From the IMG/VR virus record IMGVR_UViG_3300024265_000031: a stretch of DNA of 64,000 nt; one strand, given 5' to 3'. The notes under the pieces were generated by a model. That model was not told where the DNA came from. It saw only the letters and a list, made by a program, of their open reading frames with translations, and did not search any database. The DNA is from a virus. The translations under genes and the position numbers were made by a program. Shown in pieces: positions 20,727 to 54,068 of the stretch (position 1 is its first letter; each line of letters begins with the position of its first letter).

Positions 20727-21605
20727 TCATGCTCCATTTAAAATTGATTTTTGGTTTGATAATGCACTATCCAGTGTTTTATTTTTTACATGAGTATAAA
20801 TCTGTGTTGCCTTTAATGAAGAATGACCCAAAGCAGCTTGAATAGTTCTTATATTTACATCATTGTCAACAAGATTGGTTGCAAATGTATGGCGTAAAAC
20901 ATGAGGAGCTACTTCTTCTATACGTTTTTCTGATATTCCGCCACGTCTAGCTATTTCATTAATTTTATAACGAATACCCGATCCAGTAAAAAGCTTCTTG
21001 CGCAAAGATATAAAAAGATATTCGCGACACTTGTATTTTTGCAGTCTCCATGTTCTATATTTTCGTAGAAGCTGACAGGTGTCTTCAGTAAGAGCCAATG
21101 TACGCTCTTTGGATCCCTTTCCTTCTACAGTAATATGACATTCTGTTATGTTTTCTAATTTGAGAGTTATCAGTTCATTACGGCGTAGCCCACATAATAC
21201 AAGAAGAGATATCATCAATTTTTCCATGTCATTTTTGCATCCCTTAACCATGGCAAGAATTTCTTCATCTGTTAGAAAATTCGGATTCTTTTTACCAGTT
21301 TTCAAAGCCTTTACCTTGTCAAATGGCGACCTTTCAGTGTATTCATTATCAATCAGCCAATTGTAAAATGCTTTTAGCGGCCTAGTATGGGAGTTTACGC
21401 TTGATCGAGCCAAGCCTTGTTCAAGTAATTTCGCCTGGAATTCCCTACAATCTTTGGGAGTTATCAATGTTATGTCAATAAATTCATTGATATCTAATAT
21501 ATCAATAAATTTCTTGAGAGATGCCTTGTAGCTACTGACAGTATGTTTAGACAATTCTAAACTGATTGCTTCAATATATTCTTGTATTTCATTTATTGTA
21601 TTCAT
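20727..21605 (-). CDS. XerC/XerD-like tyrosine recombinase
   Basis: Catalytic set GLRR, GKGSKER, HVLRH, LGH, TQIYTH; true start is MNTINE after AGGAG (the track start at 21662 is the -35 box). Confidence 0.92.
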   Translation of the reverse strand: MNTINEIQEYIEAISLELSKHTVSSYKASLKKFIDILDINEFIDITLITPKDCREFQAKLLEQGLARSSVNSHTRPLKAFYNWLIDNEYTERSPFDKVKALKTGKKNPNFLTDEEILAMVKGCKNDMEKLMISLLVLCGLRRNELITLKLENITECHITVEGKGSKERTLALTEDTCQLLRKYRTWRLQKYKCREYLFISLRKKLFTGSGIRYKINEIARRGGISEKRIEEVAPHVLRHTFATNLVDNDVNIRTIQAALGHSSLKATQIYTHVKNKTLDSALSNQKSILNGA

Positions 21606-21633
21606 TGTTTCTCCTAGTATTTTAGTATAACTA

Positions 21634-21662
21634 ATTCTATCATATTTTTTGTGTTTTGTCAA
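21634..21662 (-). promoter_or_regulatory. Sigma70-type promoter of the recombinase
   Basis: TTGACA-17 bp-TAGAAT with TG extension. Confidence 0.85.
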
Positions 21663-21668
21663 GGAGTT

Positions 21669-22214
21669 TTAAAGTTTTGGTGCTGGAACTTGTAAAAATT
21701 TTTCTCTCAATGTGTCAAGACTAACAGGAAAATGGTTCCAGCAATCTACTCCCACGTCTGTAGAGCGTCCAAAATCTGATAGTTGACAGTGGGAGTGTCC
21801 ATATAAGTGATATGTTCCAAAATGGGATCTGCACCACTTTCGCATTGCGTAATGGCACAACACCCACATTTCAGGATATGGAGTATCGTTTTTAAATTCA
21901 AGAATATGTATAGGTTCTAAAACAACAAAACTTCTTTCAGTTGAATCTTTTGAAAATCCTTTCATCCATTGCCAATCATGGCTGCCTGGTATAATATGAA
22001 TTTTGCCTTTTAGCTGATTAATGAATTCAAGAAATGTGTTGTAGCTACCAAGAGTTACATCGCCAAGCATATAAATATCATCATTGTTATTAACAACACT
22101 GTTATGATTGCTAATAAGAGTAGCATTCATTTCAGCAATATTGCCAAACGGTCTATTGGCGTATTGTAAAATGTTACCATGATTCCAATGCTGATCTGCA
22201 GTTGCCCATATCAC
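21669..22214 (-). CDS. Calcineurin-like metallophosphoesterase
   Basis: DQHWNH, LGD, GSHD, GHSH. Confidence 0.85.
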   Translation of the reverse strand: MIWATADQHWNHGNILQYANRPFGNIAEMNATLISNHNSVVNNNDDIYMLGDVTLGSYNTFLEFINQLKGKIHIIPGSHDWQWMKGFSKDSTERSFVVLEPIHILEFKNDTPYPEMWVLCHYAMRKWCRSHFGTYHLYGHSHCQLSDFGRSTDVGVDCWNHFPVSLDTLREKFLQVPAPKL

Positions 22215-22330
22215 AATAAAATCACCATTTTATTTAATATATTTCTGTTCCATTATAAACATTATTACTACAACCGTAGTATATAAAATCAGAGGGAATA
22301 ATAAGCATAGCACAGATGATATCATTTTAT

Positions 22331-22675
22331 TTAAAAATAAATAATGTCTTCTTCAAAATTTATTGACATTGGTTTTATAACCAAATCAAGGAATTCTTGA
22401 TTAATATTTTTGTCTACATGTGCTTTTGAAAATCTATTTCCTCTTGACGATTCAAGTGCAGGGAGCGCTCTGTATCGCGTGCCATCCACCAAGGTTATTC
22501 GATGAAAACTTATATTTCTAAAATCTTCTTGTATGTCATTTTTTGGAATATCTTTGATTAAATCATCCATCTTGTCTTTGGCAACTTTCCAAGTTTCTCC
22601 AAAAACTAGAATTTGTTCGTATAGTGGTGACATTATAAATTTTCTAATCCTCCCATTTCTTATTGTCCAACTCAT
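22331..22675 (-). CDS. Hypothetical protein
   Basis: 114 aa, preceded by junction motif and GGAGG. Confidence 0.6.
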   Translation of the reverse strand: MSWTIRNGRIRKFIMSPLYEQILVFGETWKVAKDKMDDLIKDIPKNDIQEDFRNISFHRITLVDGTRYRALPALESSRGNRFSKAHVDKNINQEFLDLVIKPMSINFEEDIIYF

Positions 22676-22694
22676 ATTCCTCCAGATAAAAGTA

Positions 22695-22901
22695 TCATTT
22701 TATTTGTGTAAATTCTAAATTCATTCTAACAGCAATAATTTTGTCTAAATACGATGCTCTTTCTATTATACAATTAGCACATAACAATCCGTGAAACCCA
22801 TCAGGATAAATTGCCAACCATTGATCATTAGGCAATGTTGTATCAAGACCAAAATCACTATACGGTTTACTACAATCTTCACATCTAACTATTGAATTCA
22901 T
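22695..22901 (-). CDS. Small Zn-ribbon protein
   Basis: CEDC...CANC; bounded by two junction motifs. Confidence 0.6.
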   Translation of the reverse strand: MNSIVRCEDCSKPYSDFGLDTTLPNDQWLAIYPDGFHGLLCANCIIERASYLDKIIAVRMNLEFTQIK

Positions 22902-22928
22902 TGTTTGTTTCCAGATAAAAGAACTATT

Positions 22929-23171
22929 TTATGTTCGTAAGTTTTTATATTCAGGTGAAAGATATGCTTCTATATTTTCTAAAGCAACCATTTTTCTGTA
23001 TTCTATCACCAAGCGATTCCATTCATTAATGTGTGCAATTCCCTCAACGCGGTCTGTTGAATATGCAATAGCAAAACAACAAGCAAGTATTCCGCCTTTT
23101 TGACCAAGAACAACATCAATTTCTTGTGGAAGTTTTTTACAAATAGGGCATTTTAAAAATTTATTTTTCAT
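22929..23171 (-). CDS. Small CxxC protein (Lar-like)
   Basis: KCPIC...EWNR. Confidence 0.5.
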   Translation of the reverse strand: MKNKFLKCPICKKLPQEIDVVLGQKGGILACCFAIAYSTDRVEGIAHINEWNRLVIEYRKMVALENIEAYLSPEYKNLRT

Positions 23172-23307: not shown

Positions 23308-23395
23308 AAGTTTATTACAATGATACTATTATTGTAAAAATGCATATAATTGTTATTGTCATTATTAATATATCCATAGTTCCTCCAAATAAAAC

Positions 23396-23644
23396 CTATC
23401 TTTCATTTAAAAACTTATCTATGGCTTCTACAACAGGATCTAATGAATCTTCTGGATTCCATTCCCACACTTCAGTTAAAAGCGATGCCATATCTAAATT
23501 TTCTTGCATAATTTTTGTCATATTTTGATGGAGTATTTCTATATCTCTTTCTAGTTTTATGATAGCTTCAGCCATACCATAAGTATCAAGCGTTCCATCT
23601 TGTTCATCTGTGAATTCATGTAAAACACGTACTCTAGTTTTCAT
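23396..23644 (-). CDS. Hypothetical coiled-coil protein (paralog of 23899-24141)
   Basis: Shared N-terminus MK.R..VL.EFT...DGT.D.Y.MA.AIIKLER.IE. Confidence 0.65.
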   Translation of the reverse strand: MKTRVRVLHEFTDEQDGTLDTYGMAEAIIKLERDIEILHQNMTKIMQENLDMASLLTEVWEWNPEDSLDPVVEAIDKFLNER

Positions 23645-24141: not shown

Positions 24142-26134
24142 AAATCTCCTCAGATAAAATCATCCTTTATTTAATTTTATACCATCTCGTCTATGTCTTT
24201 TTTCAAAAGCCATTTGATTACTGCATTCTTGTGAAATCTTTTTCAATAATTTATAAGATGATGGATCAAGATATTCAAGAATAACTTCTTTGCCAACAGT
24301 TTCAATAATCTCATCAAGAATTTGAGCCATAGATCCTGGTTGTGGCGCGTACATTATTTCTTTTAATTGCATAAATCACTCCAGATAAAAGTCATATTTT
24401 ATCTCGTAACTGTTGGATATATTTTTCTAACATGATTGAGTGTGGTTTACTGCAGTTATGACATATTGCATGAAAAACATCAACAACTAAATTGGTATCG
24501 TTTCTGTGCAGCGTCTTGCAATAATAACAACTCCAATGAAAAACTAATCTATCACAATCAGGAAATATTTTTATTGGCACATTTTTTAATTTAGTCATAA
24601 ATAAAATTCATCTTTTATCTAACTTTTAGAACAAAGACAATCTTGGTATTGTGTTGAAAGCATAAATATTTTTTCAAGATCTGCATACATGTTGTCTGCT
24701 CTGCTATTTAATATGTTTTGATTTATTATATTATTGCATTTTTTACAAAAAACTCCTACTCTTAATTTTTCTTGTTCATCTAACCCAAAAGCTATATAGG
24801 AATTTTCTTTTCTAAAATAAGGGGTGGCCAATACAAAATAATATCCAATTTGTAGCAATTCAAGTTCTAACATATTTAAAAAAGAATCACTAAAAAAGTT
24901 ATTCATTACCTTAAGTATTTTTCGCGTTCTTTTACCCTTGACATATTGTTTTTGTTCAACAACATCTTCTTTTATGGCCTTCAATATTTTGTTTTCTTTT
25001 TTAGTTAACATTTTTCTCCTTGTATTTAAATATAACAACACTTATTTTATGACAACCATCACACAGTATATGTTCTTGATCACCTGGGGGAAACTGAACA
25101 TATTCTTTGTGGTGATAGTGTTTGCAATGAGGGCATTCCCATTCAAAACAAGTTTCAGGGAATGCGGGTAATACAATTTGTGGTTTATTTATAATAGCCA
25201 TAATAAATTCATATTTTATTTAACAATTAAGTAAACCAAGAATCCGCACCATGCTATACTAAGAATGTATGATGCAGCAACAGTCCAGATTTCCAAAAAA
25301 ATATCATCAAATGCCCAACCAATAATATGAGCTGGCAAAATCATTGTGTGTATAATTATTCTAAATGGTAATGCCAATAAAAATATAAAAACTCTGACAG
25401 AGGCTTTTATGTGTTCTACGTACTTTTGTAACATCTCTTCTCCTTGTATAATAAAATGCGGATTTTATGTTTCCAAAATGATTTGTTTGTAACACAAATA
25501 ACATAAATTCTTTTTGTGTATTGTCGCATTACATCCTACAGAATGACATCTTAATGGATCATATTTTGTTCCAGAACAAATTCTATTTTCCCCATTCATT
25601 CTTTCATTGTAACATCCTTCATAACACAATACAAATCTATCAGTTTCATCCCCGTATTGAATTGGACATCCGTACATAATTTCTCCTTGTAGATAAAAAC
25701 GTGTTTTATTTGCAACCACAAGTACTACCGCAATATGGACAGAATTCAATTTCTGTTTCATCTGCCTCTACTCTTCCAAGAGGCTCTTTCTTAATTTTGG
25801 GCAAGTCAATTTCAAATAGAATATCTATTTTTCTTAAATCTGCACTAAACCACCCAACATCAAATTGCCAACCATACCATGATAAATTAGGTGTTGAAAT
25901 TCTCCACTGTCCATATGCATATAATAAATAATTTTTATCATTGCTTATTTCTTCATGTTTATGATTATTTCTATCCCCAGTAATATCAATCCTTTTTAAT
26001 TTTGCCTCTGAAAAATCTAGCAACAAATTAGCAAATACTTCTGATTCCTTTTGCCATCTTTTTAAATTTTCTTCGCATACTTCGTCATAATTCATTGTAT
26101 AAACTCCTAGATAAAATACGTGTTTTATTTTGAG

Positions 26135-26207: not shown

Positions 26208-26211
26208 ATAA

Positions 26212-26284: not shown

Positions 26285-26285
26285 A

Positions 26286-26360: not shown

Positions 26361-26363
26361 TTA

Positions 26364-26434: not shown

Positions 26435-26438
26435 AAGG

Positions 26439-26510: not shown

Positions 26511-26513
26511 CTA

Positions 26514-27193: not shown

Positions 27194-27463
27194 GGGGTAT
27201 TTACCAATAAAATCAGTATTTTATTTAATGATTAAATATGCGTAACTCATCTTCAATCTCATCTTTCATATCCATAATTAAAAATAATGGACTTTTAGGT
27301 ATGAAAGTCATATCAAGAGTGTTCTCAATATTTCTAATAGCATCTCGCATTTGACACCATGCTCTTTCTGCAATAATGCACTCTTTATACAGCCTCATTA
27401 GTTCATGTGGCTTAAGTTCTGATACAGGTATTGCCATTTATTTCTCCAGATAAAAGTCGCATT

Positions 27464-27661
27464 TTATTTATAGTCCTCTGGTCTTTTATTCCATTCATCC
27501 TCGCGTATTCCGCCATCTTCAGTTTTATATTGTAGCCATGCCAACTCACATTTTTTATTTATACATGCATAAAATTTTGTATTATTCCATTCATGTACAA
27601 TTTCAGGATGTTTGCCACAAAATGGACAACTCTTTGCTTTGTCATTCATTTGCAAGGCCAA
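27464..27661 (-). CDS. Lar-like (restriction alleviation) Zn-ribbon protein
   Basis: KSCPFCG...C....C...WNKR pattern. Confidence 0.55.
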   Translation of the reverse strand: MALQMNDKAKSCPFCGKHPEIVHEWNNTKFYACINKKCELAWLQYKTEDGGIREDEWNKRPEDYK

Positions 27662-28370
27662 GGAGCATTTTCTTGATCATCCTGCTTCTCAATAATTTTT
27701 TTAGGCCCTACCGTTCCAGCCTCGCAACCATATTCATTATTTTTTCCAATATAACATTGAAAATGAACAAGATCATCACCCATCATTCCATTTTCACTTC
27801 CCATTGATTTGCCACAAAGCACACAATTAGTCATATTTTTCTCCAATAAAACTTACATTTTATCTTGCCACATTGCCATACGCGGCAACCAATTTCAGAC
27901 TACCATATTTAAAAACCTTTCCCCATTTATATCCTTTACTTTGATATATAGAAAATGCTTCCTCCAATGTTTCTACCCAAACTGATTCGGTTAGTGGTCT
28001 TGGAAAGTTTTTTAATGTTGCTGGTTGAAATATCATTTTATAGTTTTTTACCATTTTTCTCCAAATAAAAGCTACGTTTTATTTAATAGGCTGAATACCG
28101 CTAACATTTCCAAACAGCTTTCTTCGCACTTTAGCTTTGCTTGTTTTTTCTGCATCAATTCTTTCTGCATTTTGCAAACTTAACAACCCTTCTCCAAACA
28201 GCATGCCCTCTGGATCTTCCCTATAATCCCACACCCCTCCAAGCTTTTCATCTCCTGTTTCATTATCAATAACAGTTTCTAAAGCGAGTCCTAGCAGGTG
28301 AAGAAATTGTCTATTCAGTTCTTGCAAATATCCTTGCGCCCTGAATTCTTTTATTGGCATTCTCTTTATT

Positions 28371-30772: not shown

Positions 30773-31411
30773 TGTACCAATCTCTCCAATAAAAGCCACA
30801 TTTTATTTCTGAATTTGTATGCCATAAAGTCTTCCAAATATTTTCATTTCAATATAAAATATTTGATATATTTTTTTGTACCCAACAGAGAAGTATATCC
30901 AGTCTGCAGAAGGATTTTTCTTTTTATAAAAATTTATTTCCATATTTATTTTTGTCTTTTTTATAATAATAATTAATCTCTTTCATAAAAGGTTTCATTA
31001 CCATTGGAAAATTTTACTCGTATTCTTTTAGGGAGTGGTTTATATTGTTCCCATACACAATACTTTATTGATACAATTTCCGTGTGGTAATTTTCACATG
31101 CCTTACAAAGTTTTTTTGACGAATGCTCTGTATGGCAATATTTACATACGTACCTTGTTACTTTTTTCATTTTTCTCCAATAAAATCTGCGTTTTATTTC
31201 TTGCGAATAATTATTTCGTTTCGTGCATAACCTGCTATAACTTCTAATTTTTCTCTTAATTTTTTATTTTCTCTTATTAGTCCAGATATTAAAATATCAT
31301 ATTCATAGCTTCTTTTGCAATCAGGACATTTGCTTCTGGTATATCCATGTCTATTTATAACAACCTTATATCTTTTTTTACAAGAACATACATGCCATGT
31401 TTTATGTTTTT

Positions 31412-34188: not shown

Positions 34189-34240
34189 TACTGTTCTCCT
34201 TTTTGTTTTTTATTTTCTCAGATAAAACATCTATTTTATC

Positions 34241-38124: not shown

Positions 38125-38291
38125 ACTTCTTATTCCTCCTTTTTATTTCCAACCATAGATTGTGCCATTTTTGCAAAAAGCTCTCGCTTCTTTCTCAATT
38201 GTTGTGCTTTTTGTTTGAGTTGTTCGCCTTCCAACCCATATGTTTTTCTTACATATCTGGTGAACTCATCTTCTTTATTATTCATAAAATC

Positions 38292-38837
38292 CTATTTTAT
38301 TACCTTTTCATATATAATATCATTTGGAAAATTTAATCCAAATGTAAACCATGCAGTATCAAACCATGCACCTTTTGTTTGTATACCATCTACTATAAAA
38401 CTTATACGCTTATCTAATAATACTAGTTGTAACCAATTGTCTTGAAATATCTTTTGTCTCTTGGCTGTAGATAATGAGGATAGATTCATAAGGAAACAAA
38501 ATGGTTTTCCAAAACTTGCTGCTCTTTCTAAGAATTCAGTTTTCAAAGAGAATGGAGGATTGGTCACAATAATATCCCAATGAAATTCTGGTTTTATTTC
38601 GAAAAAATCTTGTTCCCATTTATAACAGATATCTGTTCCTATGGCTTGATATCCCATATTCCTAGCACAAGATATAATTTTTAACTCTCCGCATCCAGGA
38701 TCCCAAATCACCCAATCTTTAGGAATGTATTTCAAGATTATATTTGTAGCATAATCTGGAGTTTGATAATTATCTTGTTTCAGTTTTTTTGCGTTTGTTT
38801 TTCTGTTCAACCTACTGTATTCATTGTGTTCATTCAT
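38292..38837 (-). CDS. DNA amino-methyltransferase (N6-adenine type)
   Basis: YQTP, IWDPGCG, IVTNPPFS. Confidence 0.8.
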   Translation of the reverse strand: MNEHNEYSRLNRKTNAKKLKQDNYQTPDYATNIILKYIPKDWVIWDPGCGELKIISCARNMGYQAIGTDICYKWEQDFFEIKPEFHWDIIVTNPPFSLKTEFLERAASFGKPFCFLMNLSSLSTAKRQKIFQDNWLQLVLLDKRISFIVDGIQTKGAWFDTAWFTFGLNFPNDIIYEKVIK

Positions 38838-39565: not shown

Positions 39566-39782
39566 AATAAATTGTTAAGGTGCTTTTCTAAATGTTATAA
39601 AAAATAAAAAATTTATACCCCAATATGTTTCCATGTGATGCCGTCTTGATGGGCTTATTGCAAATGAAAACAAAGAATGTTTTCCTAGTCTTAGAATATA
39701 TATTCGAAAAACTCCATATTCATAATTTATACTAAATAAATCAAAATTAAATGTTTTCAAATAAAATCTCCGTTTTATTCAA

Positions 39783-40031: not shown

Positions 40032-40573
40032 ATATTTTCTCCAGATAAAAATTCGTTTTATTCAAAACAATGGGCGGTGCAGGTATTATAATTTTACCAC
40101 ATCCCATACACCTTATAGCCACAGCAACAACCATAAACATAAATCCTTCTACTGTATGTCCACTATCTTTATTGCAATGGCGGCAAACAATAGGTGTTGA
40201 TTTTGATTGATATCCATATTGATTTTTATTGATTTGTAATTCCATTTTATTCTCCAGATAAAATATTCGTTTTATTCTGTTTTTATTTGATCTATTGCAC
40301 TACATAATTTCACAAACATATCACGAATCTCATAAATATCTTCAATACTATTTATAGCAAAAAGACAATCATTAAATTCTGATAATATTAAGTTTTCGCG
40401 TAAACGCAATTCTTTATTTTGTGTAACTTCAATATCTCCTCGAAGAGCAAATACTCGATTCCAATGATCACTAATAATATTCACATGTTTTATATGTACA
40501 TCTGTTATATTCAAAACATCAAGATCTATTTTTTCCATTTTATATTTTCCTTATTTCCAAATAAAAATTTGTT

Positions 40574-41008
40574 TTATTCGTAATACCAGCTTATTTGTAG
40601 TTTAATGGCATTACTTTCACAAGACACACTTCCACAATCTCTAGCACCATATTTTAACTTAACAAGATGCGATAAAATTCTTGAAACATTTTTTTGATGA
40701 ACACAAACATCAATTGAATATTCTCCATTTTGACAAGCTGTTGTAATAGCAGAGCTAACAATATTGAAATCTTTTTGAAAATCTTCATTTATTGCTGTAG
40801 CAATTTCTTGTGCTTGTTTTGCATTTATCATTTTTGTTTCCTTTATTTCTCTTTGGTGTTGTATAACTTGATCAAGAACTATTGTAGTAATAAGTTCGGG
40901 ATTTCTTTTTCCTAAATTTATAGCAGCACCAAGCCTTCTTGGTTCAAATACATCGATATGTAACCAATAAAAATCTTCTTGATCTCTGGAAATTTTTAAT
41001 TTATCCAT
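40574..41008 (-). CDS. Hypothetical protein; C-terminal half is an ISW-family paralog
   Basis: Start corrected to MDKL; internal MINAKQAQEI..CQNG..LQISW. Confidence 0.55.
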   Translation of the reverse strand: MDKLKISRDQEDFYWLHIDVFEPRRLGAAINLGKRNPELITTIVLDQVIQHQREIKETKMINAKQAQEIATAINEDFQKDFNIVSSAITTACQNGEYSIDVCVHQKNVSRILSHLVKLKYGARDCGSVSCESNAIKLQISWYYE

Positions 41009-41042
41009 TTTTTCTCCAAGATAAAACCTTCGTTTCATTTGA

Positions 41043-41197: not shown

Positions 41198-42553
41198 GTC
41201 ATTCCCAAGAAATCATAATGTCATATGTACCATGGTGACATTTATCTATAGAAACTTCCCAACCCATCATGGCACAATATGATTTAATTTGACATATTGT
41301 ATTGTCAGACATATAGACATCAAATAACCCGTAGTGGAATTTATCTTTGTTGGTTTGATATTCCATGATGCAACAAAGGGCATCGCCAATAAATTCCCTA
41401 TCTATAGATAAAATTTTCATTTCATCTACCAATCGTCACCTTGTTTTATCTCATTCAGCGCAACATTGGCCACTAACACAGCAAACTCTTGATCACTCAT
41501 TTCTTTAGCGATACAGATCAAATCTTTAATTGTAATATTATCTAAAACGTTATCGTTATACCAAAACCCCACTCCATAATTTTCACCCATTGCTAAAGGA
41601 TAAGGATATTTGGCAACTTCTATTTTTATTCCCAATGATAACGCTCTTAATATAATGCTGGCCCTGTGTATTAAAAGTTTAGTTGATTTTTCAGTCATTG
41701 TATTCCTTGTTTATATTACAAGTCTTGCATGCATCCATACAACAATCAGATCCATTGTACAAACATAAATCATTTTGATGATCCCAATCAAAAAAATTTG
41801 GAGCACAATAAAACCTACAAACTTTTATTGGTTGAGAAAAACTTTGCATGTTGAAAGATCCAGTAATTTCATAACAATACATTCCAACGGGCACATATTT
41901 CTTAGCGTTAAGCATTATTCTTGGATGAAAAATCATCCAAATCAACCTATAAATCCATCTATGAATCAAATAAAATCGGTATTTCATTTCAAACATTTTA
42001 TTTTTTTTCTTAAAATATAATTAAAATTTTCAATATGAACACCAACTATTTTCCGATCTTTTGATCTTCGAAGCCATGCCAATTCACCTTTTCCAAAATA
42101 AGATACTATAGTTTCTTCATATTTATTTGTCAAAAAAATTCGAAGAATGTCAGCATGTTTATCATATTGAATATGTTTTTTTATCCAATTCATGATTTTA
42201 TATGGCATTTATTTATTCTCTCCTTTTATAAAATTGTGGATGACTAGATGGATGTTCATGTAATCTAATTTTTTTTTCTCTAATTATAAATTTTCCCTTA
42301 ATGGTTTGCTTTTTTTTAGGTAGTCTAGACGGCGGAATATTTAATTCCATTTTATTATTTTCTTTAAAAATAAGATCCCAAAAAAATTCAAATACAAATA
42401 GAACTATATGAAAAGAAACATAATAAATAAAAGCAATTGCAAGGAATATGATAAGATATATGTCACCTAGATGTTTACGAATCTTTATCAATTTTTCTTA
42501 TTCCTTTTGTTTTCTCATTAATGACCCAAATAAAATGGTTCTTTTATTTAAAT

Positions 42554-43804: not shown

Positions 43805-44958
43805 AAAAATCTCCTATTGTCTCCAATAAAACTCTCTTTTATCTAATAATGTGTTACATATGTGGAGCTTAAACAAAAGGGACAATCGTAATATTTTTTA
43901 TCAAAGTGTTTTTTACAAGCGCCACAATAGCGATGGCTCTTGTGTTTCTTGCGATACTTTTTTATTTTTTTCCATATTTCCTTATCAGTTCTAGGTTGTT
44001 TCATTTTTCTCCAATAAAATCTCTCTTTTATCTATCCTATCTTGTTTACCCATTCATTGTATATCTCTAATGCAAAAAGATTGGTAGCGTCCTTCAAAAG
44101 AAATTCTAGTTCCATAATATCCTCTTCTAATTGATCAATTTTTTCTTTAAGTTTTTTGTTTTCATCCCATAAACGTTCATAGTCTTTATCTGAACACATT
44201 ATCTTTCTCCAACAAAACACACTTTTATCTAAAGGACTTCTGATACCACTTTAAACTTATAGCCACAAAAACACTTTATATGTCCATATTCTATTCGTGT
44301 TGAGCAAAGGTTTTCACCAATACTTTCACATTCAGGGCACACATAATACCATTTATTAACATTGGCATAATATTTACATATGCTTGCTTTTACTATTTTC
44401 ATTTTCTCCAAGATAAAACCTATGTTTTATCTTCTTAATTTTGCAAATCTTATTTCAAAAGAATCTTTATCTGTTGGCATAATTTTTTCTATCATCATAC
44501 CAAGAAGTCCTTTTCTTTTTATTAGAACAACGTGATCTAAAACTAAATCCTCCTCATTGTCATATCCACTAATATTTCCGTTGTTCCAAAGTTCGCCCAA
44601 TATTCCATCTTTTACCATATTCGCAAAATCTTGAATATCTTCTGTTGTATATTGATATATTTGCATTTTCATTTTTTCTCCATTGTATTTTTACACAATT
44701 CACAACTACAAATTGGTTGCCATCCTTCCATATCGCCAAATCTTTGAGCCATAGTTTCAAAAGTAATGGGTACATCATCAATGCTTTTATCCCTATAGGG
44801 CATCATATCTATCCAATCATCAATTTCCCAAGACCACGCTTTCCACATCATTGATTTTGCCTGAGTTGCATTTTTACCATGTACATGATCTCCCCATTCT
44901 TTATCAGGGTTGGCATATACAAAATATCCTTTATGTTTTGTCATATAAAATTCTTGTT

Positions 44959-45666
44959 TTATTTGTTCCCTATAAAATTTTTAAGTGTTCTAACTAATTG
45001 TTGTTTTGTATTGTTACTAATATTGAATTGATCATAGTCTTCATCCCATTCTGCAGGTTCTATTTCTTCAATGTCTTTTATCCATGTGCCAAATGTATCT
45101 GTACTTTTTTCATAGTTTTCATCAAGTGTCATATATACAATTTGAACTTCTTCATTTCTCCCATGTTCTAATTGTATTTTGCCTCTCAATGATGTAGTGC
45201 TACAAACTGTACCATCTTTAAAAAATACAGATATAGCACTTTTAACAATTTTTGAAGGTCTTCCGCACCCATCAGATAACCAAATTTTTTCTGTAACAGT
45301 ACGATAAAAATCCGTTCCTTTTTTATTTTTTGGCTTAGGAGCGCCACAAGCCCAACAACATCCTCTTTTAGTTGTAGCAGAATTGCTATCACACCATTCA
45401 CAATGAGTCCTGACTATTCCCTCTGATTGAATATAGTTTTCTTCTAGTCGCTGCAGTCTTTCTTCGATGGCATATCGCCAATCCTCAAATGACATATGTT
45501 TTGGGTATGGACTCGCTGATCCAAATACACATTGTAGATCTTCTGAACTAATAAATGATCCAACCAATGCATTTCCTGAAAGAACAAATGATCCAGCAGA
45601 TGACCCAGATGGTATATAATTTGCCATATCTTTTTCTATTGCCTCAGCTATGTTAGCCATTACCAT
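44959..45666 (-). CDS. Hypothetical protein with Zn ribbon
   Basis: CEWC...CWACGAP. Confidence 0.6.
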   Translation of the reverse strand: MVMANIAEAIEKDMANYIPSGSSAGSFVLSGNALVGSFISSEDLQCVFGSASPYPKHMSFEDWRYAIEERLQRLEENYIQSEGIVRTHCEWCDSNSATTKRGCCWACGAPKPKNKKGTDFYRTVTEKIWLSDGCGRPSKIVKSAISVFFKDGTVCSTTSLRGKIQLEHGRNEEVQIVYMTLDENYEKSTDTFGTWIKDIEEIEPAEWDEDYDQFNISNNTKQQLVRTLKNFIGNK

Positions 45667-45693
45667 TATTTCGCCTCAGATAAAAGACTTGTT

Positions 45694-47010
45694 TTATTGG
45701 TTCCAAATTTTTGCTAATTGTTTCGTATATTGTTTGTCATTAATGCAACGCCCAACTGGAATATAATTAATTCTAAGTTTATTAGATAATTCTTGGTCAA
45801 GAATTCGCCAAAAATCTATTACTGTAGTGTTTGGTAAAAAATCTTCTACAGTAAGAGATTTAAATACTGGATCTGGATTAGTAATTAACACAATGTTTGC
45901 TCGTTTTAAACAATATTTGAGCGAATTATATCCTTCCACCAAAGGATCATATCCAACAACCCGCACATCAATTCTATTTAATGCTTGCAACAAACTCATT
46001 GCTTGAGATTCTTCTGTTACTTGTGAATGTGGTTTATAAGCAAGTCCTAAAATAGCCACTGTTGTTTCTTTTGTTATCATAGGCATTAATTGATGAACAA
46101 TGCGACTAGGCAATAACCGATTCATTTGATCTGTTACTTCCGCTATTCCAGATTCAGAACCAATTGCATTTGCAAAATAACCCAACGCAAGATTGTCTCT
46201 TGGAAAACAAGGGCCACCATAGCCTAAAGCACCTTTCAAATATTTATTGCCAATACGCGTGTCAGCCCCTAGCGCATCAGTTACTATATCTACATTGCCC
46301 CCAGGAATACGTTCACATAAATCAGCTAACATATTTGCATAAGTTATTTTAGTAGTAACATAAGTATTCAAAGCCACTTTAGTTAGCTCTGCATTTTCCA
46401 AACTCATACGTTTACAGGGTGAATTGTTTTCCATAATTTCTGAATAAAATTTTTCAAGGTATCCACCGCAGCGTTTATCAAATTCTCCAATAAGGGTAAA
46501 ATCAGGATTGAGAAAATCTTGAATAATACTCCCCAAAGCAATAAATTCAGGGCTGTAACATAAGCCAAAGTGATTGCCGCATTTTTTACTTGATACTTTT
46601 TCTAAAATGGGTAACAGCCCAAACCGTGTTGCGCCAGGGAGAACCGTACTCGCCAATACAATATTGTGATATTCATTTTTATTTTTAAGAACTTCACCTA
46701 TTTGATAAAAAACTTCAGATACATATTCTAACGAAAAGGATCCGTTTGGATTACTGGGTGTGGGAACTATTACGAATGACAGATCTGAATTCATAATGGC
46801 ATCCGTATAGTCCTTGGTCGCCCTAATGCGAAGACTATTATCCGCTACAGTCTCTTCTAAGTTAGTCTCTTGTACGGGCGCATGTCCTGCATTAACTAAA
46901 TCTATTGTTTGTTGATTGTTATCAACGCCTATAACATTGAAACCTTTGCTTGCAATGGCTGCTGTCATGCTTGCCCCCAATTTTCCTAATCCGATGATTG
47001 ATATTGTCAT
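45694..47010 (-). CDS. UDP-glucose/GDP-mannose dehydrogenase family protein
   Basis: GLGKLG, VPTP, STV.PG, PEF, AELTK, GYGGPCFPRD. Confidence 0.9.
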   Translation of the reverse strand: MTISIIGLGKLGASMTAAIASKGFNVIGVDNNQQTIDLVNAGHAPVQETNLEETVADNSLRIRATKDYTDAIMNSDLSFVIVPTPSNPNGSFSLEYVSEVFYQIGEVLKNKNEYHNIVLASTVLPGATRFGLLPILEKVSSKKCGNHFGLCYSPEFIALGSIIQDFLNPDFTLIGEFDKRCGGYLEKFYSEIMENNSPCKRMSLENAELTKVALNTYVTTKITYANMLADLCERIPGGNVDIVTDALGADTRIGNKYLKGALGYGGPCFPRDNLALGYFANAIGSESGIAEVTDQMNRLLPSRIVHQLMPMITKETTVAILGLAYKPHSQVTEESQAMSLLQALNRIDVRVVGYDPLVEGYNSLKYCLKRANIVLITNPDPVFKSLTVEDFLPNTTVIDFWRILDQELSNKLRINYIPVGRCINDKQYTKQLAKIWNQ

Positions 47011-48180: not shown

Positions 48181-48544
48181 ATGATTCCTTAATAAGCCAG
48201 TTTGCAGCCATAATGATTATATCACCATGGCAAGGTAGTGGAGCACAATAACAAACTAAAGCACTATATTTACCTTTGCCCATATTATCAAGCAATTGAA
48301 TAACTTCTTCGTTTTTATTTTTAATCATTTTCCAAAGATGATGACGATATTTTTCAATAGTCTCATATCGCTTTCCTACAAATGGATTATGAAGAATGGA
48401 TTCGGTTAGATTATATTTAGTACTTCTTCTCCCAATGTATAACCAATCATTGCCATAGTCTTTATTTATTTCATCAATAGAAATATGTTTGAGATTCAAT
48501 AAAATTAACATTTTATTCTTATTTCTATATAAAACCATAGCCAA
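48170..48544 (-). CDS. DUF4326-like protein
   Basis: YIGR..NPF..LVCYCAPLPCHGDII; true start probably MLILL. Confidence 0.75.
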   Translation of the reverse strand: MAMVLYRNKNKMLILLNLKHISIDEINKDYGNDWLYIGRRSTKYNLTESILHNPFVGKRYETIEKYRHHLWKMIKNKNEEVIQLLDNMGKGKYSALVCYCAPLPCHGDIIIMAANWLIKESYAK

Positions 48545-50707
48545 ATAAATATCATAAACTCTTGTTTGCCTTTCATTAATTGTCTTTTATATCTCCAAGG
48601 GATAATGAAAAATTGTAAGTGGGGAGACCTACCTATTTTAATTTTCATTTTTTAAATCCTCCAAATAAAACTAATCTTTTATTTACGATGGATAATGAAG
48701 TAAAACATCCTTTATACCATCATTCAAATCTTCCATATTTTTTAATTTTGTTTCAAGTTTTTCAATGTGTTCACTCATTCTACGAATAACTTTTGCAACA
48801 GCAAAATCATTTATCCATTTTTGAGTTTTAATATGTGTGAGTACAACTTCCTCAAGGCGATTCAAATCATAAAGCAATCCATCAACTGGTTGGTTGAAAA
48901 TCAAATCATTAATGTCCACAGCAATAAGTTCATTAGTTGCTAATAGAACAACTTTATTTTCCTTTGCTTTATCAAGTATAAAATTTTTCAGATTCTCTAT
49001 TTTTTCTTTTTCACTCATATTTCTCCAAATAAAACTAAAATTTTGTTTAGTATCCATCTACTATCTCTATCAAATATGGGCCACGATGTCCATGCCAAGA
49101 TAAAGTTATACAGTGCCCCTCCTCTTCCATGAATTCAAGTAAGTCTTCAATGCTGCCCATTTCAATTGTCCATCCATTTTGTTCAAAATCTCTACTTATT
49201 TCTCCGTGTTCAACGCGATGATTTTTTCCTTCGATCCACCATTCAGAATCATCTTTTTTATAACATGGAATTTTCTTAGGATCGTCTACGCTTCTTGTAT
49301 CAGTATAGATTACAATTTCCCTTATTGCATTTTTACACGGACTTCTATCATCATCCATGCGATAGGATCTTCTTTCACAAATAAATTTCATGTTGTATTC
49401 TCAATAAAATGCATCCTTTATTTAAAATATAGTTCCCTTACTCTTTCATATTCATTGTCAGCTTTTGTTCTACCCTTTAGATAGGCTATTTCATATTCTA
49501 TTGCTTCTTTATCATCATAAATATATGGAATCGAAAACGGAGGCAAAGGTTCGACATTCTTATTCTCACAACGTTTCAACAATTTGAAATACCATCCCCA
49601 AACATTTTCTACTGTATATTTTTTTCTTTTCCAAAACATTATATTTTTTCTCCAATAAAATGAGTCTTTTATTTAAGCAAAAGAACAAATGCAAATCCCC
49701 ACCATACAAATAAAGTCACAGCAATAAATGGAGCACAAATTGGGTTTGGGTTCCCATCTTCATCTGTAAATGCCCACCAAATAATTATTGAAGGCCATAT
49801 AACAGGTAAAAATGGTAGCCATATTAATATTCGTAGTGCTTTTTTTATAATTTCCACAATAAAATCAGCCTTTTATCTCGTCAATAATGCCTTGTATCTG
49901 TCTCTGCGGGAATTGATTAGTATATTCACTGCCGCCACCTATTCGTTCTACAAAATGCAATATTGCATCAATTGTTTTTCTCAATCTTTCAATTTCCTTT
50001 TGCATTGCAGCAATGGATCCTCTTAGCTCCCCGTCTGGCGCTATGGTTTCTGTTTCCATAAATGCATTGGATAAATAATCGCTTTCAGATTTTAATTTCT
50101 TAATCTCTGCTTCAAGTTCGTCAATATACTTGCCAACAGCTTTCAAATCATTTCTGTTTATTATTCGTATCATTCATATCTCCAAGTAAAAACATTTTTT
50201 ATCTAGTAAACCTTGCTCTCTCTTGTTATATCCAAATACCAATGGTTTTCTTTAACCCATTCTTTTAATTTTTTGTTATCTGGTTCTATCAATTGCAGGA
50301 GAATTATCATAGTGTTGTTACAAACAATATTCCATTCTACATTGTGCAATTCATTGATTGCATCCCATGCTTTACATGCCTCTTTACTGTCAAGGCTTTT
50401 ACGCAGAGATTTATGTAACGTATAACCCAAAGTGCTTGATAAATCTTCTATCCTTTTTTCTATGTCATTCATAATTTCTCCAAATAAAACACATTTTTTA
50501 TCTAGTATGATTTAATATACCCAATTCTTAAACCAACCATTGGGAAAAATCCAATATAAACACACTGATCAGAAATATACATTCCAATCCAAATATCATA
50601 CCATTTAAAATATGGTTCAAAGAACCATATATAAGTCCACTCCTTTTTCTTGCTTTTCCAAGTAAAAAAATTTGTTTTCATACATTGCTCCAAATAAAAC
50701 GTGTCTT

Positions 50708-51229
50708 TTATCTTACAAAATCATGATACAACAATTGATCATACATAGCAACAATAAAATCTTGCCATTCTTGTAATTTATGACCCTTGCGTTGAGAAAT
50801 CATATGTCTCAATGCTTTATAATTAGTACAAACAATTCTTCTTTGAAGAAATGATTCGGGTAAAAGACTTTTAGCTTTTTTCAATTTGTTAATACTTATT
50901 AATTTATTTAAAATAATAAGTATGGATCCTGGTATTGTATTCGCAAAATCATTTTGATCTAATTGTCTTTTCATAAGCGTATGCATTGTACTCTCAGATT
51001 GCTTTGTTACGCCAACCCTGTAAGTATCAAACTCTTGCCACCAATACCTGGGAGCTACAATATCAATCCATACAACAATACTTTCTAAGAATTTATTATG
51101 TCCCCCATCTTTCATTGCAAGTTTTTTTGCAATTGCTCTGGCCCGTACAACTGTTTGATTGTAAGACAAAGAAATTCCCAACATTGCTTCATCACAACCA
51201 GCCTCTCGCAAAACAGTAAAAGTTGCCAT
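50708..51229 (-). CDS. ThyX-related phage protein
   Basis: GHNKFLE...APRYWWQEFDTYR...SESTMH, LPESFLQ.R...NY..LR. Confidence 0.6.
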   Translation of the reverse strand: MATFTVLREAGCDEAMLGISLSYNQTVVRARAIAKKLAMKDGGHNKFLESIVVWIDIVAPRYWWQEFDTYRVGVTKQSESTMHTLMKRQLDQNDFANTIPGSILIILNKLISINKLKKAKSLLPESFLQRRIVCTNYKALRHMISQRKGHKLQEWQDFIVAMYDQLLYHDFVR

Positions 51230-51407
51230 TATTTATCTAACACGTTCTTTTTAGCAATTTCAAAAATTTCTTTAAGCGAATCTCTCATTTCACTAATACT
51301 ATCATTATCAACCCATTGACATATATCATAAATCTCATCCCAGTTTTCTTCCATAATTTTTATATAATCTTTTAGTACTTCTAAATCTTCCTGCAATTCT
51401 TTAATAT

Positions 51408-51884
51408 TCATGCTCTTCTCCTTGCATAGGAAATTAAATAAGTTTTAGCCCATTTTTTCACTGCATTATCTGACACACCATATTTTTTACCCATTGCTAC
51501 CCAAGACATTCTTGATATGTCCTTTTGCAATTGTAGTTTGCTTGGTCTTCTAACTTTTCTACTGCCCCAAGCACGACATTTTTCACAACAATATTTTTTG
51601 TTATAAGTTTTAACATCGCATATGGCACAAACCCTGGGCGGCATCTTGTTTGGCTTCAATAAATGATGCCTATGATGTTCACCAGCATTCATTAATTCCA
51701 AATTATCTATAGAATTGTTTAATTTATTTCCATCTATATGATGAACATGTTCATTAGATTCTAAAATCCTTCCAAGTTTTTCATACATAATTAAACGATG
51801 TTTATATATTCTGCCTGTTGAATCTGCCATGGGATGATTTTTTATATGTACAGCTTCGTATCCATGACTTTTATCTATCCACAT
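51408..51884 (-). CDS. HNH endonuclease with C-terminal HTH (homing-type)
   Basis: HRLIM...HVHHIDGNKLNNSIDNL; GKKYGVSDNAVKKW. Confidence 0.85.
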   Translation of the reverse strand: MWIDKSHGYEAVHIKNHPMADSTGRIYKHRLIMYEKLGRILESNEHVHHIDGNKLNNSIDNLELMNAGEHHRHHLLKPNKMPPRVCAICDVKTYNKKYCCEKCRAWGSRKVRRPSKLQLQKDISRMSWVAMGKKYGVSDNAVKKWAKTYLISYARRRA

Positions 51885-51905
51885 TTTTTCTCCTTTTTAT
51901 TTCTA

Positions 51906-51980
51906 CAGGACGTAAGGGAATCGAACCCAAGATTGCCTACTGTTTTGGAGACAGTTATGCTACCATTACACCAACGTCCT
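51906..51980 (-). tRNA. tRNA-Trp(CCA)
   Basis: actgt-ctccaaa-acagt. Confidence 0.9.
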
Positions 51981-52000
51981 AGATAAAATGATGCTTTTAT

Positions 52001-52219
52001 TTAAGGTGCTATTCCAACGTTCCACTCATAGCCACCATCACAATAACCGTCATCAATATGGGGATTGCACCCACACTGTTCATATTCTTTGATAAATTTA
52101 TCATACTGATCTTGAAGCAACACCCTAATCATTTGATCAATGACCCACATTTTATGATGCCCTCCGTCAATTTGTGCGTATTGATATGCCACTTGGATTG
52201 CCTCGTCTATTTTGCTCAT
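52001..52219 (-). CDS. Phage hypothetical protein
   Basis: QIDGGHHKMWVIDQM...WNVGIAP; bounded by junction motifs. Confidence 0.65.
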   Translation of the reverse strand: MSKIDEAIQVAYQYAQIDGGHHKMWVIDQMIRVLLQDQYDKFIKEYEQCGCNPHIDDGYCDGGYEWNVGIAP

Positions 52220-54068
52220 TTTTCTCCATATAAAAGATGTTTTTATTTAACTTCTTCGTAATTTATTTCAATCCATTCATTAGCCCAATGCTCTGCCTCT
52301 TTCCATTTTTCATCAGGAGACAACTCTTTCCATTCCTCTTCTGAATATCCTAAATCCTCCACGTCAAACACATCTATTTGGTCGTTCATAAATCCAATTC
52401 CTACCGTAAATTTTACTTTCATATTTCTCTCCAGATAAAATGGCGCTTTTATCTACTCACCTAAATCCCATTCTTCATACTCATCACAAACTGTATCTTC
52501 TTCTATTGAAAACTTTGATTCTTTCAACCTAATACAATAGTATTCCTCATGATCAAATTCTACAAGACAATGTGTGCAATAATTACAACATGGTACAGTT
52601 CTAAAATTAATTGATTCTTTGAATTTGGTTAATTCTTTATTATCCATAGTTTTCCTTACATAAAACAACGATTTTATCTAGTTTTGAATGCATCACAACA
52701 ATTATTTCCTTCCGTATAAAGAATTATTTCATCTCCCAATTTTGTGTATCCAATTTTTAAACATTTGTAATCTTCATCATAATATAGCATCTCGGAATAT
52801 TCACAATTTTGACAACATTTAGATTCACTAAAATTATTTTCTTTCTTGAATTGAGAAATTTTATTATCTATTTCAATTTGCCTTTTCTCTAATTCTATAT
52901 TCTTAGCAATAATTTTACATCTATCACATGATTTTGGTTCAATGTTCCTTGATCTTACTTGGGTTGTGCCACACTCAACACATTCAAAATAATATTTCTT
53001 TTTTGTTTTTGCTTTCTTATAGGACATAATTTTCTCCAAATAAAACCATCATTTTATTCTGGTTTAAGATCGCCTAATTTTTTTCCGCAAAATGGACAAT
53101 AACGCATCATCATACTGTCGTCATGTAATGATGGTCTAATAAAAAGATTGTAAACAGAATTGATTCCGAAATAATTTTTATAAATAGCAACACTTATTTC
53201 TTCACAGCAAGCATTTGCGGTTTCATGCCTTGTTACATCTTTTATTTTCATTTGTTTTGGACTAATTACTTTGTTCACAATAAAACCCTTTTTTCATCTT
53301 GAATTTTTAATTCTTTTATTTTCATTATTTTACGTTAATAAACAAGATATTTTCATTTGAAAAATAGTAATATAAGATTTATAAATATAGGTATAGGTTT
53401 GAATGTAACTAATACAAGATTTTGCTTCATAGTAATCTATTAAAAATATAATACATATAAGAAAAAAAATAGAAGTTGCCACCACAGAACGAAATATAAT
53501 CTTTTTGTGTATTTTATTCATATTTCTCAAGATGTTTTTTTAGTTTATCAACCATTTCTTTTTCAATAGGACTATTTTCTAAAGTAGGATCTTTATCGAC
53601 ATAATACCAGCCACTTTGCTCTAAATCTTTTTCAAAACAAATCCCAATTCTAAAATCATTGCTCACAAACTCAATCGCCAAGCTTCCATCATCACATTCA
53701 TAATAATCTAAAGAAACTTTACTCACAATAAAATCTCATTCCATCTCGTCATAAATTAAATATTCTTCATCACATGAAAAACATTTTTCTTTTGTCATCT
53801 TGTTTTCCAAATTGTCTTTAAAAATAACATTGCAACTATAGTAACACTTAGGACATTCCCATCTAAAAACAGTTTCGCTTTTAGCTTTTATCTTTTTCAA
53901 TAAATCTCCGTATATAAATTTTCATTATCATTTTCTAGTTTTTTAATTTCATTTTTTAATTCTTTATTTTCTTTTATAAGACAAGCGATTTTTTTATTCA
54001 AACTCTTTAATTTTTTCCCACACTTTTTACAACGTTTCATATAAGCATACCACACTTTACTCACAATG

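Follow-up and report, generated by a model that had tools for sequence, protein, structure and literature searches.

ATAAAA-N6-TTTTAT palindromes at the gene junctions of SPbeta-like and related large phages: probable protein-read sites at points of module exchange

Phage genomes evolve above all as mosaics, by a mechanism that is debated: rare illegitimate recombination followed by selection is set against recombination at conserved linkers, which are seldom found. Here, we analyse a stretch of 64,000 nucleotides of viral DNA (IMG/VR record IMGVR_UViG_3300024265_000031, hereafter the window), at whose gene junctions a perfect palindrome, ATAAAA-N6-TTTTAT, is repeated again and again, and which also encodes a Xer-like tyrosine recombinase. 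The same element, a sharply defined linker of 18 bp, recurs in a whole supergroup of large phages, from 12-18 times in SPbeta, phi3T, SPR and the Goe phages to over 100 times in uncultivated relatives, and it lies at module boundaries more often than its intergenic position would explain. We consider it likely that it is a dyad-symmetric site, read by a protein at the level of DNA, that marks the points of exchange between modules.

In engineered cassette exchange with heterospecific lox or FRT sites, all sites have the same arms, recombination takes place only between sites with the same spacer, and segments are swapped in register. Identical arms and differing spacers are also what one finds here, and the parallel may go further; we know of no natural phage system of this type. 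The arms of dif, lox and FRT measure 11-13 bp. The attC sites of integrons are imperfect palindromes of 57-141 bp with extrahelical bases, which act as a folded single strand and stay with the upstream gene. Like an integron, the window has one-gene units bounded by palindromic sites and a tyrosine recombinase in the same element; unlike in an integron, its sites lack polarity and the features of imperfect hairpins, and neither the signature of an integron integrase (IntI) nor an attI site accompanies them. The L5 stoperators, finally, are repeated phage sites bound by one phage protein, and they are asymmetric, with an orientation that follows transcription, whereas the present palindrome is perfect and its spacer composition is mirror-symmetric.

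The promoter-early stem-loops (PeSLs) of T4-type phages (Arbiol et al. 2010, PMC2839356; Comeau et al. 2014, PMC4122927) are likewise short repeated intergenic elements in hyperplastic accessory regions, located where close relatives part from each other by an insertion, a deletion or a replacement. However, a PeSL consists of a sigma-70 promoter and a terminator stem-loop and recombines through sequence homology, while the palindromes are mostly promoterless (2/42 lie near a strong promoter), form a hairpin too weak to terminate and keep strictly to the 6-N6-6 layout. In the pdif (dif) modules of Acinetobacter plasmids, too, accessory genes are bracketed by many Xer-type sites in varied contexts, Xer-type recombination being presumed there rather than demonstrated (PMC6449649). 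Yet pdif sites are 28 bp long, have distinct XerC and XerD arms and depend on host XerCD, whereas the phage arms are identical and only 6-8 bp long, the recombinase candidate is encoded by the phage, there is up to one site per gene, and the orientation of a site can be read from its spacer alone. The SAS/ESAS elements of Cluster K mycobacteriophages (PMC3203893) resemble the palindromes in being inverted repeats with variable spacers right upstream of a conserved sequence that contains the Shine-Dalgarno (SD) motif, in their case at some of the genes only; they differ in having imperfect 17-bp arms, a spacer of 4-13 bp and 11-19 copies, and in being kept with gene families, while the palindromes are not kept with orthologous genes. 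SPbeta itself has repeated intergenic sites bound by one phage protein: its SPBRE element is bound by MrpR, a repressor with the fold of a tyrosine recombinase, and is a 15-bp motif, apparently a separate one, found at about 10 promoters (PMC10516654).

The window is part of a metagenomic contig of the Joint Genome Institute (Ga0114923_10000023, 150 kb), which was accessible up to window coordinate 74,278, and it was analysed together with 10 kb of extension; a Logan contig of SRR5210996 is 99.99% identical over the overlap. Its genes are encoded by the plus strand over the first 8.7 kb or so and by the minus strand beyond. The palindromes form a family of sites. The perfect form occurs 36 times in the window, whereas 100 dinucleotide-preserving shuffles average 0.13 copies and never exceed 1, which bears out the estimate of fewer than one chance copy made in a preliminary description of this DNA. 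All 33 perfect copies listed there exist, and three more (10778, 48499 and 60612) had been overlooked; the six copies with a 5-nt spacer (N5; 0.11 expected) lie precisely where it had placed them. There are about 10 one-mismatch copies at junctions, five noted before (23389, 41021, 49029, 49404 and 53280) and further ones at 8219, 24154, 41408, 44212 and 50186, and there is one N7 copy, at 4857. Over the window and its extension (74 kb), the spacers are distributed as 43 N6, 6 N5 and 1 N7: their length is held at 6, N5 making up 12%, and the layout is that of a core site with two inverted arms around a 6-bp centre. The arms are perfect, 18 bp in total with the spacer, and free of bulges or extrahelical bases. 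The copies in the window are the following, no strand being assigned to any of them.

4857..4875, N7 copy preceding the SD of a plus-strand gene
7888..7905, N6 site where plus-strand genes meet
8219..8236, one-mismatch copy (ATACAA) preceding the SD of a plus-strand gene
10778..10795, N6 site 45 nt upstream of the gene for the large subunit of ribonucleotide reductase (RNR)
11401..11418, N6 site immediately downstream of dnaE
22216..22233, N6 site upstream of the phosphoesterase gene; the dense run begins here
22686..22703, N6 junction site
22915..22932, N6 junction site
23389..23406, one-mismatch junction copy, left arm ATGAAA on the coding strand
24154..24170, one-mismatch N5 junction copy
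24385..24402, N6 junction site
24601..24618, N6 junction site
25451..25468, N6 junction site
25693..25709, N5 junction site
26111..26128, N6 site 5 nt past tRNA-Met (last tRNA of its array), before the SD of the next open reading frame (ORF)
27207..27224, N6 site past a stop codon, with the strong promoter of the tRNA array directly downstream
27450..27467, N6 junction site
27846..27863, N6 junction site
28065..28082, N6 junction site
30789..30806, N6 junction site
31180..31197, N6 junction site
34222..34239, N6 site between the radical-SAM and PurA-like genes
36967..36984, N6 site abutting the -35 of a TTGACA-N17-TATGAT promoter
38284..38300, N5 junction site
39761..39778, N6 site upstream of the tRNA-Ser/Tyr cluster region
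40045..40061, N5 junction site
40258..40275, N6 junction site
40561..40577, N5 junction site
41021..41038, one-mismatch copy 4 nt past tRNA-His, before the SD of the next ORF
41408..41425, one-mismatch junction copy right behind a stop codon
42530..42547, N6 site past the BCS1-like AAA ATPase gene
43826..43842, N5 junction site
44014..44031, N6 junction site
44212..44228, one-mismatch N5 junction copy
44413..44430, N6 junction site
44945..44962, N6 junction site, ATG directly behind the right arm
45680..45697, N6 site past the UDP-glucose dehydrogenase gene
48499..48516, N6 site
48665..48682, N6 junction site
49029..49046, one-mismatch junction copy
49404..49421, one-mismatch junction copy
49655..49672, N6 junction site
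49859..49876, N6 junction site
50186..50202, one-mismatch N5 junction copy
50484..50501, N6 junction site
50694..50711, N6 junction site
51983..52000, N6 site between a stop codon and tRNA-Trp, 2 nt from the tRNA
52230..52246, N5 junction site
52435..52452, N6 junction site
52660..52677, N6 junction site
53040..53057, N6 junction site
53280..53297, one-mismatch copy; the coding-strand ATG is possibly a start codon
60612..60629, N6 site within an open 283-codon frame (60025-60876) of the glycan cluster

On the coding strand, the unit that had been described, stop, palindrome, SD and start codon, holds: it reads [stop]-ATAAAA-N6-TTTTAT-(Y)T-GGAG-~7 nt-ATG, and the conserved part exceeds the palindrome (...TAAATAAAA-N6-TTTTATYTGGAGAAAA). 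In the extended window, the upstream stop is the TAA within the left arm in 24 of 45 sites, stands immediately before the arm in 9/45 and falls within the spacer in 7/45, while a GGAG-type SD starts 1-3 nt past the right arm in 33 of 49. Three sites (26111, 41021 and 51983) lie between ORFs and tRNAs. Strong promoters of the sigma-A type follow directly downstream of the sites at 27207 and 36967, several internal promoters are present, and neither promoter-like nor canonical terminator-like sequences are in excess. The palindromes stand in several arrays over more than 74 kb, spread through the genome, and the dense run does start one gene away from the recombinase, with its first site, 22216, upstream of the phosphoesterase gene. 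Of two stretches first thought to be free of sites, the one from the end of dnaE to the recombinase (11,610-21,662) has none, and the glycan cluster has the copy at 60612, which is either a rare intragenic copy or a sign that the frame is a fusion of two former genes. That all spacers of the window differ is true for 36 of 36; however, by our arithmetic about 85% of random sets of 36 hexamers are also all distinct, so that uniqueness alone is uninformative.

Relatives were recovered by pattern scans of IMG/VR and of metagenomes, with the reversed pattern as a control (below, G001-G011 are genomes of relatives and L-numbers are metagenomic contigs). In many of the recovered contigs the palindrome is strongly enriched, while the reversed pattern is not. 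The perfect N6 copies number as follows.

G003, 20
G004, 8
G002, 6
G006, 22
G007 (91% complete), 56
G010, 15
G011 (complete), 12
Three proviruses in isolate genomes, 8-16
19 short metagenomic contigs (1-12 kb), 2-8 each
SPbeta, 13 (about 0.2 expected), all intergenic or on a stop codon
phi3T, 14
SPR, 12
Goe13, 18
Goe11, 16

What is more, ATAAAA-N6-TTTTAT is the top palindrome of the 6-N-6 kind in the phage of the window, in G002, G003 and G004, and in SPbeta. The genomes that bear it range from 28 to 41% in G+C content and have few proteins in common with the window. The distant ties of the window to SPbeta are a tail protein, YorL (DnaE) and YorS (a 5'-3'-deoxyribonucleotidase, NT5C-like); SPbeta YorG (Sak4-like) is matched in the window by function only, and terminase ties SPbeta to G003, G004, G007 and G011 and not to the window, for which INPHARED gave no near match. 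The palindrome is absent from the oligonucleotide of the SPbeta aimR promoter, which comes from a fragment carrying SPBRE, so that the site of MrpR appears to be another element; the part of the SPbeta literature that was examined makes no mention of the palindrome, which is apparently a second, undescribed repeat in this phage beside SPBRE. Searches of genome collections for the motif together with an SD gave scattered single matches only, those in Aquimarina being a different repeat, and the best BLAST match to a junction, in Yersinia phage phiR1-37, was set aside as a chance match since that phage has zero copies.

Two single sites deserve mention. In G004 (L056 175-240), the palindrome overlaps the -10 (TATAAT) of a consensus TTGACA-N17-TATAAT promoter; transcription would thus begin inside the site, a placement unlike that of any site in the window. 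In G007 (L363 19098-19115), upstream of the NT5C orthologue, the SD (GGAAAA) lies within the spacer and the start codon shares bases with the right arm (TTTTATG), i.e. the site tolerates forming part of a translation start.

How do the sites behave when related genomes are compared? In L213, L215, L245 and L273, a gene and its palindrome are held in common while the neighbourhoods differ; L241 has an additional gene of about 40 codons with a palindrome of its own at the 3' end; and L228 and L301 differ by two one-gene units, one of them exactly from arm to arm, between sites that agree in 4/6 spacer bases. Across the metagenomic contigs compared, 20 of 53 break points are no more than 25 nt away from a palindrome, compared with 7.8% of random positions. 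Break points in these relatives have been placed beyond the right arm, at +5 and +18, as well as within the left arm and to the left of it. In the window, a site adjoins 53/103 ORFans, far more than the 7/34 found for genes that have homologues in relatives (p = 0.0025), and among orthologous genes the site is not kept on the same side. Five pairs of palindromes stand in tandem only 1-5 nt apart (L190 315-355; L228 398-436; L238 1567-1605; L241 1238-1278 and 2204-2241); in L301, a whole gene separates one such pair, and the tandem pairs look like empty slots.

The same question was addressed in cultured phages, with the 73 palindromes of five SPbeta-like genomes (SPbeta, phi3T, SPR, Goe11 and Goe13) and their 80-nt flanks. 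A megablast break point lies within 30 nt of 43 of the 73. Homology is one-sided, stopping at the palindrome, in 104 of 224 informative comparisons (46%) and runs through in 120, while at control intergenic sites it is one-sided in 199 of 1062 (19%) and runs through in 863 (odds ratio 3.8, p = 5e-17; the p-values are inflated, since the five related genomes are not independent). The end points of homology cluster at the outer edges of the 18-mer, with none at positions 5-14, whereas those of the controls are evenly spread. In 33 comparisons it is the downstream gene that retains the entire palindrome together with its spacer, in 20 the upstream gene, and one and the same barcoded site (for example CTAATA, TGATAA or TTCTAA) is found with its left flank preserved in certain pairs and with its right flank preserved in others; since either flank can be retained, the site is a hinge and not the tail of a cassette. 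The suggestion that the sites bound exchangeable genes is thus upheld, both by single-gene gains, losses and replacements in close relatives and by the 3.8-fold excess of mosaic junctions. What did not hold is the idea that unique spacers would require chemistry independent of homology: orthologous sites in related phages have the same spacer, and exchange between genomes would therefore involve identical sites. Intragenomic duplications ending at palindromes yielded no informative case.

The constraint on the site can be seen from orthologous sites of the SPbeta group, where the mismatch rate is 1.0% in the arms, 3.6% in the spacers and 4.9% in the flanks. The arms are thus conserved about fivefold more strongly than the flanks (p = 1e-15, with pairs that are not independent), and the right arm is conserved as strongly as the left. 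The invariant part amounts to 6 bp per arm, with 2 more that are biased (AR/YT), in part because of the TAA stop and the SD. In the spacer, base composition is mirror-symmetric on the coding strand, and Watson-Crick pairs between its two end positions are depleted: N1-N6 pairs number 26 against 43.9 +/- 4.9 expected in 135 sites, and 42 against 63.3 +/- 5.1 in 167 sites. For N2-N5, the corresponding values are 25 against 34.4 and 36 against 40.8, the latter not significant, and N3-N4 shows no depletion. T at N1 with G at N6 is not depleted (18 against about 14.5 expected, by our arithmetic from the 135-site table). The asymmetry of the spacer ends points to a constraint at the level of DNA and against one at the level of RNA. 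Namely, the avoided match of N1 and N6 is unexpected for a double-strand operator or an RNA stem and is expected if ends brought together in the wrong orientation must mismatch; selection that keeps the DNA palindrome from becoming longer would account for it as well. A seeming inversion of one spacer between SPbeta and phi3T (TGATAA to TTATCA) was put aside as ambiguous, the difference being of two bases only.

An enzyme that could act on such sites is encoded next to the dense run.

20727..21662, minus strand, Xer-like tyrosine recombinase, 311 residues as called from a TTG start, the candidate enzyme, with the catalytic residues R..HxxR..H..Y

It is intact, as first described, with a PF00589 domain (2e-34), a SAM-like N-terminal domain and the catalytic residues in place. 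It scores 187-197 bits with the XerC, XerD and XerA models, under their equivalog cut-offs, and 109 bits with the integron integrase model TIGR02249 (cut-off 265), which it matches in two stretches only; its closest solved relatives are XerA and XerD. Orthologues are 39-40% identical in L248 and G006 and 29% in G007, and IMG/VR yielded no close relative. Nothing convincing in the way of a dif-like site was found near the gene. The proposed check of whether motif and recombinase occur together came out in favour: every motif-bearing genome tested has at least one PF00589 gene. SPbeta (NC_001884) has three genes for proteins of the tyrosine recombinase fold, yomM (40301-41302), yopP (78691-79767) and yopR/mrpR (81280-82257). 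Its integration is carried out by the serine recombinase SprA, and MrpR acts as a repressor on a repeated element (PMC10516654). Both yopP and yomM are annotated as site-specific integrases, and yopP is named as a core gene active in lysogeny; no stated role was found for either, yopP being the one of the two looked up in the SPbeta literature. YopP and YomM would fit a recombinase that reads the sites, which falls short of proof.

A small metallophosphoesterase gene (window 21669-22214) adjoins that of the recombinase. Its product is 42% identical to a protein of G011 (108009-108509), a genome that otherwise has in common with the window only DnaE, at 24% identity, and the gene is flanked by a palindrome in both; from this sequence comparison, it may be a module exchanged between distant lineages.

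Which protein, then, would read the sites? We tentatively propose, as a reading that may be right, that they are core sites barcoded by their spacers, for the exchange of modules in register, with the Xer-like recombinase as the putative catalyst. Each site would be a minimal core of a tyrosine recombinase, two inverted arms of 6-8 bp around a 6-bp crossover region, as in Xer geometry. The spacer, we infer, would serve as the address, different at each site of one genome and the same at the orthologous site of a relative. Distinct spacers would block recombination between different sites of one genome, and two relatives, co-infecting or resident, could trade any stretch bounded by two sites that both possess, correctly oriented and in register, gene order staying unscrambled while blocks are swapped. 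In the phage of the window, the sites would have grown in number until each small accessory gene had one, fitted in behind the upstream stop and ahead of the following ribosome-binding site. It is possible, though we would put it more cautiously, that the SPbeta-like phages as a group possess a natural system of cassette exchange, with tens to more than 100 heterospecific core sites and a phage Xer-like recombinase, for which YopP and YomM are the candidates in SPbeta. We favour exchange because it explains at once the Xer geometry, the invariant arms, the free and asymmetric spacers, the hinges with break points concealed within the 18-mer, the link to accessory genes and the ever-present recombinases.

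Several observations weigh against this proposal. To begin with, the conserved arms measure only 6-8 bp, short of the 11-13 bp of dif, lox and FRT. The recombinases of the motif-bearing phages are just 23-40% identical to that of the window, and the one of G011 is not detectable by blastp with it, though the arms are identical throughout; the position of the recombinase relative to the arrays also differs in G006, G007 and L248. What is more, G001, with 45% identity in DnaE and 66% complete, encodes a tyrosine recombinase and has zero copies of the palindrome and no other enriched one. As to the spacer as address, its conservation does not differ significantly from that of the flanks in the SPbeta group (p = 0.15), and at the one junction kept by both the window and G007 the spacer is not in common. 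The tandem palindromes are not predicted by any current model. Finally, at break points that map to the edges, a site-specific crossover within an identical 18-mer is indistinguishable from short homologous recombination, and the lack of independence among the five SPbeta-like genomes has already been mentioned.

One alternative, which we hold to be rather doubtful, is that the palindrome is a regulatory operator: a dimeric DNA-binding protein of phage or host would bind all sites and control accessory or early genes, perhaps by silencing or blocking transcription in the manner of L5 stoperators or of SPBRE and MrpR, and junctions would coincide with sites since modules bring or need one. Invariant dyad arms around a free spacer of fixed length are indeed typical of the operators of dimers. 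The sites are concentrated in an accessory, early-looking region, the replication operon being without them and the glycan cluster having 60612 alone; two of them abut the -35 of strong promoters, and the G004 site on a consensus -10 was described above. SPbeta offers a precedent, too, in that MrpR, with its tyrosine recombinase fold, represses through a repeated element (PMC10516654); however, the known site of MrpR is apparently a different one, as the aimR-promoter oligonucleotide lacks the motif. A site per cistron is more than a transcriptional block would need, the placement relative to promoters is inconsistent, orthologous genes do not retain the site, and an operator accounts neither for the avoidance of Watson-Crick matches between the spacer ends nor for mosaic junctions being in 3.8-fold excess over other intergenic sites. 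Nor is there an obvious candidate for the regulator: Pfam finds no regulator of the helix-turn-helix type among the 67 ORFs of the array, an all-against-all comparison revealed no small protein common to all motif-bearing genomes, and the SPbeta RNA polymerase YonO has no homologue in those that were compared.

It is unlikely that the element is a passive linker, in other words, a portable intercistronic end (stops in two frames, an AT palindrome and a strong SD) that travels with genes, as at the ends of morons, by short-homology or illegitimate recombination, aided by a Sak4-like annealase and a nuclease, with no dedicated site-specific enzyme involved. Several features agree with such a linker: the conserved unit is longer than the palindrome, break points in the metagenomic relatives fall at no single fixed position, the tandem palindromes look like two modules that have each kept their own end, the small gene of L241 brings its own 3' palindrome, the phage encodes both an AAA_24 (Sak4-like) protein and a PD-(D/E)XK nuclease, and the PeSLs of T4-like phages (PMC2839356, PMC4122927) provide a precedent. 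That said, neither homologous recombination nor a stop and an SD has any need for a palindrome, a fixed spacer of 6 bp or asymmetric spacer ends; the right arm, which would have no role, is conserved like the left; and it is hard to see how, without a reader, 12 arm bases would stay exact across genomes of 28-41% G+C with hardly any shared proteins.

A third possibility, that AUAAAA-loop-UUUUAU acts in RNA as a signal for processing, stability or translation, possibly bound by a phage protein, we regard as very unlikely. In its favour, the sites come one to a cistron, immediately ahead of the SD, and also adjoin tRNAs (26111, 41021 and 51983), and SAS/ESAS of Cluster K mycobacteriophages is the nearest analogue in position (PMC3203893). 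Yet the hairpin is marginal, with a mean folding free energy of -0.5 kcal/mol alone and an arm-pair probability of 0.48 in context, and neither compensatory double variants in the arms nor covariation among flanking positions were found, so that this alternative, raised from the start, has proved weak. One-mismatch variants are not enriched in G.U pairs (3/15, with 17% expected), and the commonest of them, ATGAAA on the coding strand, is frequent because it keeps a stop, TGA for TAA; an apparent wobble asymmetry in six TTTCAT variants was dropped, given three real junctions only and no wobble enrichment in the larger set. Conserved stems with free loops are the opposite of most RNA-protein recognition, and a loop-closing U.G is not avoided while Watson-Crick pairs are. 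Moreover, about half of 167 pooled sites have no SD within 6 nt, and SPbeta sites also lie between convergent and between divergent genes.

Least probable is a strict integron-like system, the cassette array of the preliminary description, in which an adjacent recombinase would insert RBS-and-ORF (ribosome-binding site plus frame) cassettes singly at attC-like single-strand hairpins, with no need of spacer homology: single genes are gained and lost at the sites, the dense run starts one gene from the recombinase and selection, judging from the N1-N6 depletion, 'sees' intrastrand or orientation pairing, but the perfect 18-bp sites lack the extrahelical bases that set the strand choice of attC, the palindrome does not regularly accompany the gene before it (33 comparisons downstream against 20 upstream), the integrase model scores 109 against 265, no attI-like primary site or common promoter was seen, adjacency of array and recombinase is not conserved in G006, G007 and L248, and the arrays are spread over the genome.

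Each of the leading readings would have consequences. If cassette exchange is what takes place, phage mosaicism would have a dedicated mechanism; if a recombinase reads the sites, they would amount to a new natural mode of gene exchange and to a toolkit for cassette exchange at multiple sites; and if a regulator reads them, a model phage of 50 years' standing would contain an undescribed layer of global control. As the same element is present in SPbeta of Bacillus subtilis 168, the question is directly testable by existing genetics.

Apart from the sites, the window encodes genes of a replication type (a DnaE-type polymerase, a primase-helicase, the PD-(D/E)XK nuclease, the AAA_24 protein and RNR), the recombinase, 20 tRNAs, genes of purine metabolism and a large glycan cluster. 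The tRNA genes form five clusters (26134-27088, 38850-39565, 41043-41118, 47026-47175 and 51905-51981), three of which stand directly behind near-consensus TTGACA-N17-TAxxxT promoters with an extended -10 (27193, 41197 and 47214). A BCS1-like AAA ATPase (BCS1_N and AAA domains, 42554-43804), unusual for a phage, lies amid small accessory genes. The glycan-synthesis cluster comprises about 14 kb of overlapping genes (window 54000-64000, continued in L064 to window coordinate ~68,700) for glycosyltransferases, Methyltransf_21, an NTP-transferase, a GHMP kinase, epimerases and a transaldolase-like protein, with an HNH_3 endonuclease gene inserted; in G006, this cluster is rearranged, with the recombinase gene in its middle.

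The purine block (31702-35221) contains an inosine monophosphate dehydrogenase gene (31702-33117) and one for a short PurA-like adenylosuccinate synthetase (33118-34188), the genes for guanylate kinase and NT5C lying farther along (contig L064). The PurA-like protein has no relative in the metagenomes searched. Its identification as PurZ, the enzyme of 2-aminoadenine DNA, was rejected: PurZ is matched at only 1e-8 and the Pyrococcus-type PurA at 1e-66, so that a Z-genome is not indicated. A gene for a radical SAM/SPASM enzyme (34241-35221) comes after four tandem genes (the region reaching to 37014) that have a near-identical N-terminal segment in common, with repeats at 35603, 36073, 36374 and 36884; judged from sequence, the five look like a phage-borne maturase of the kind acting on ribosomally synthesized and post-translationally modified peptides (RiPPs), with four precursor-like genes.

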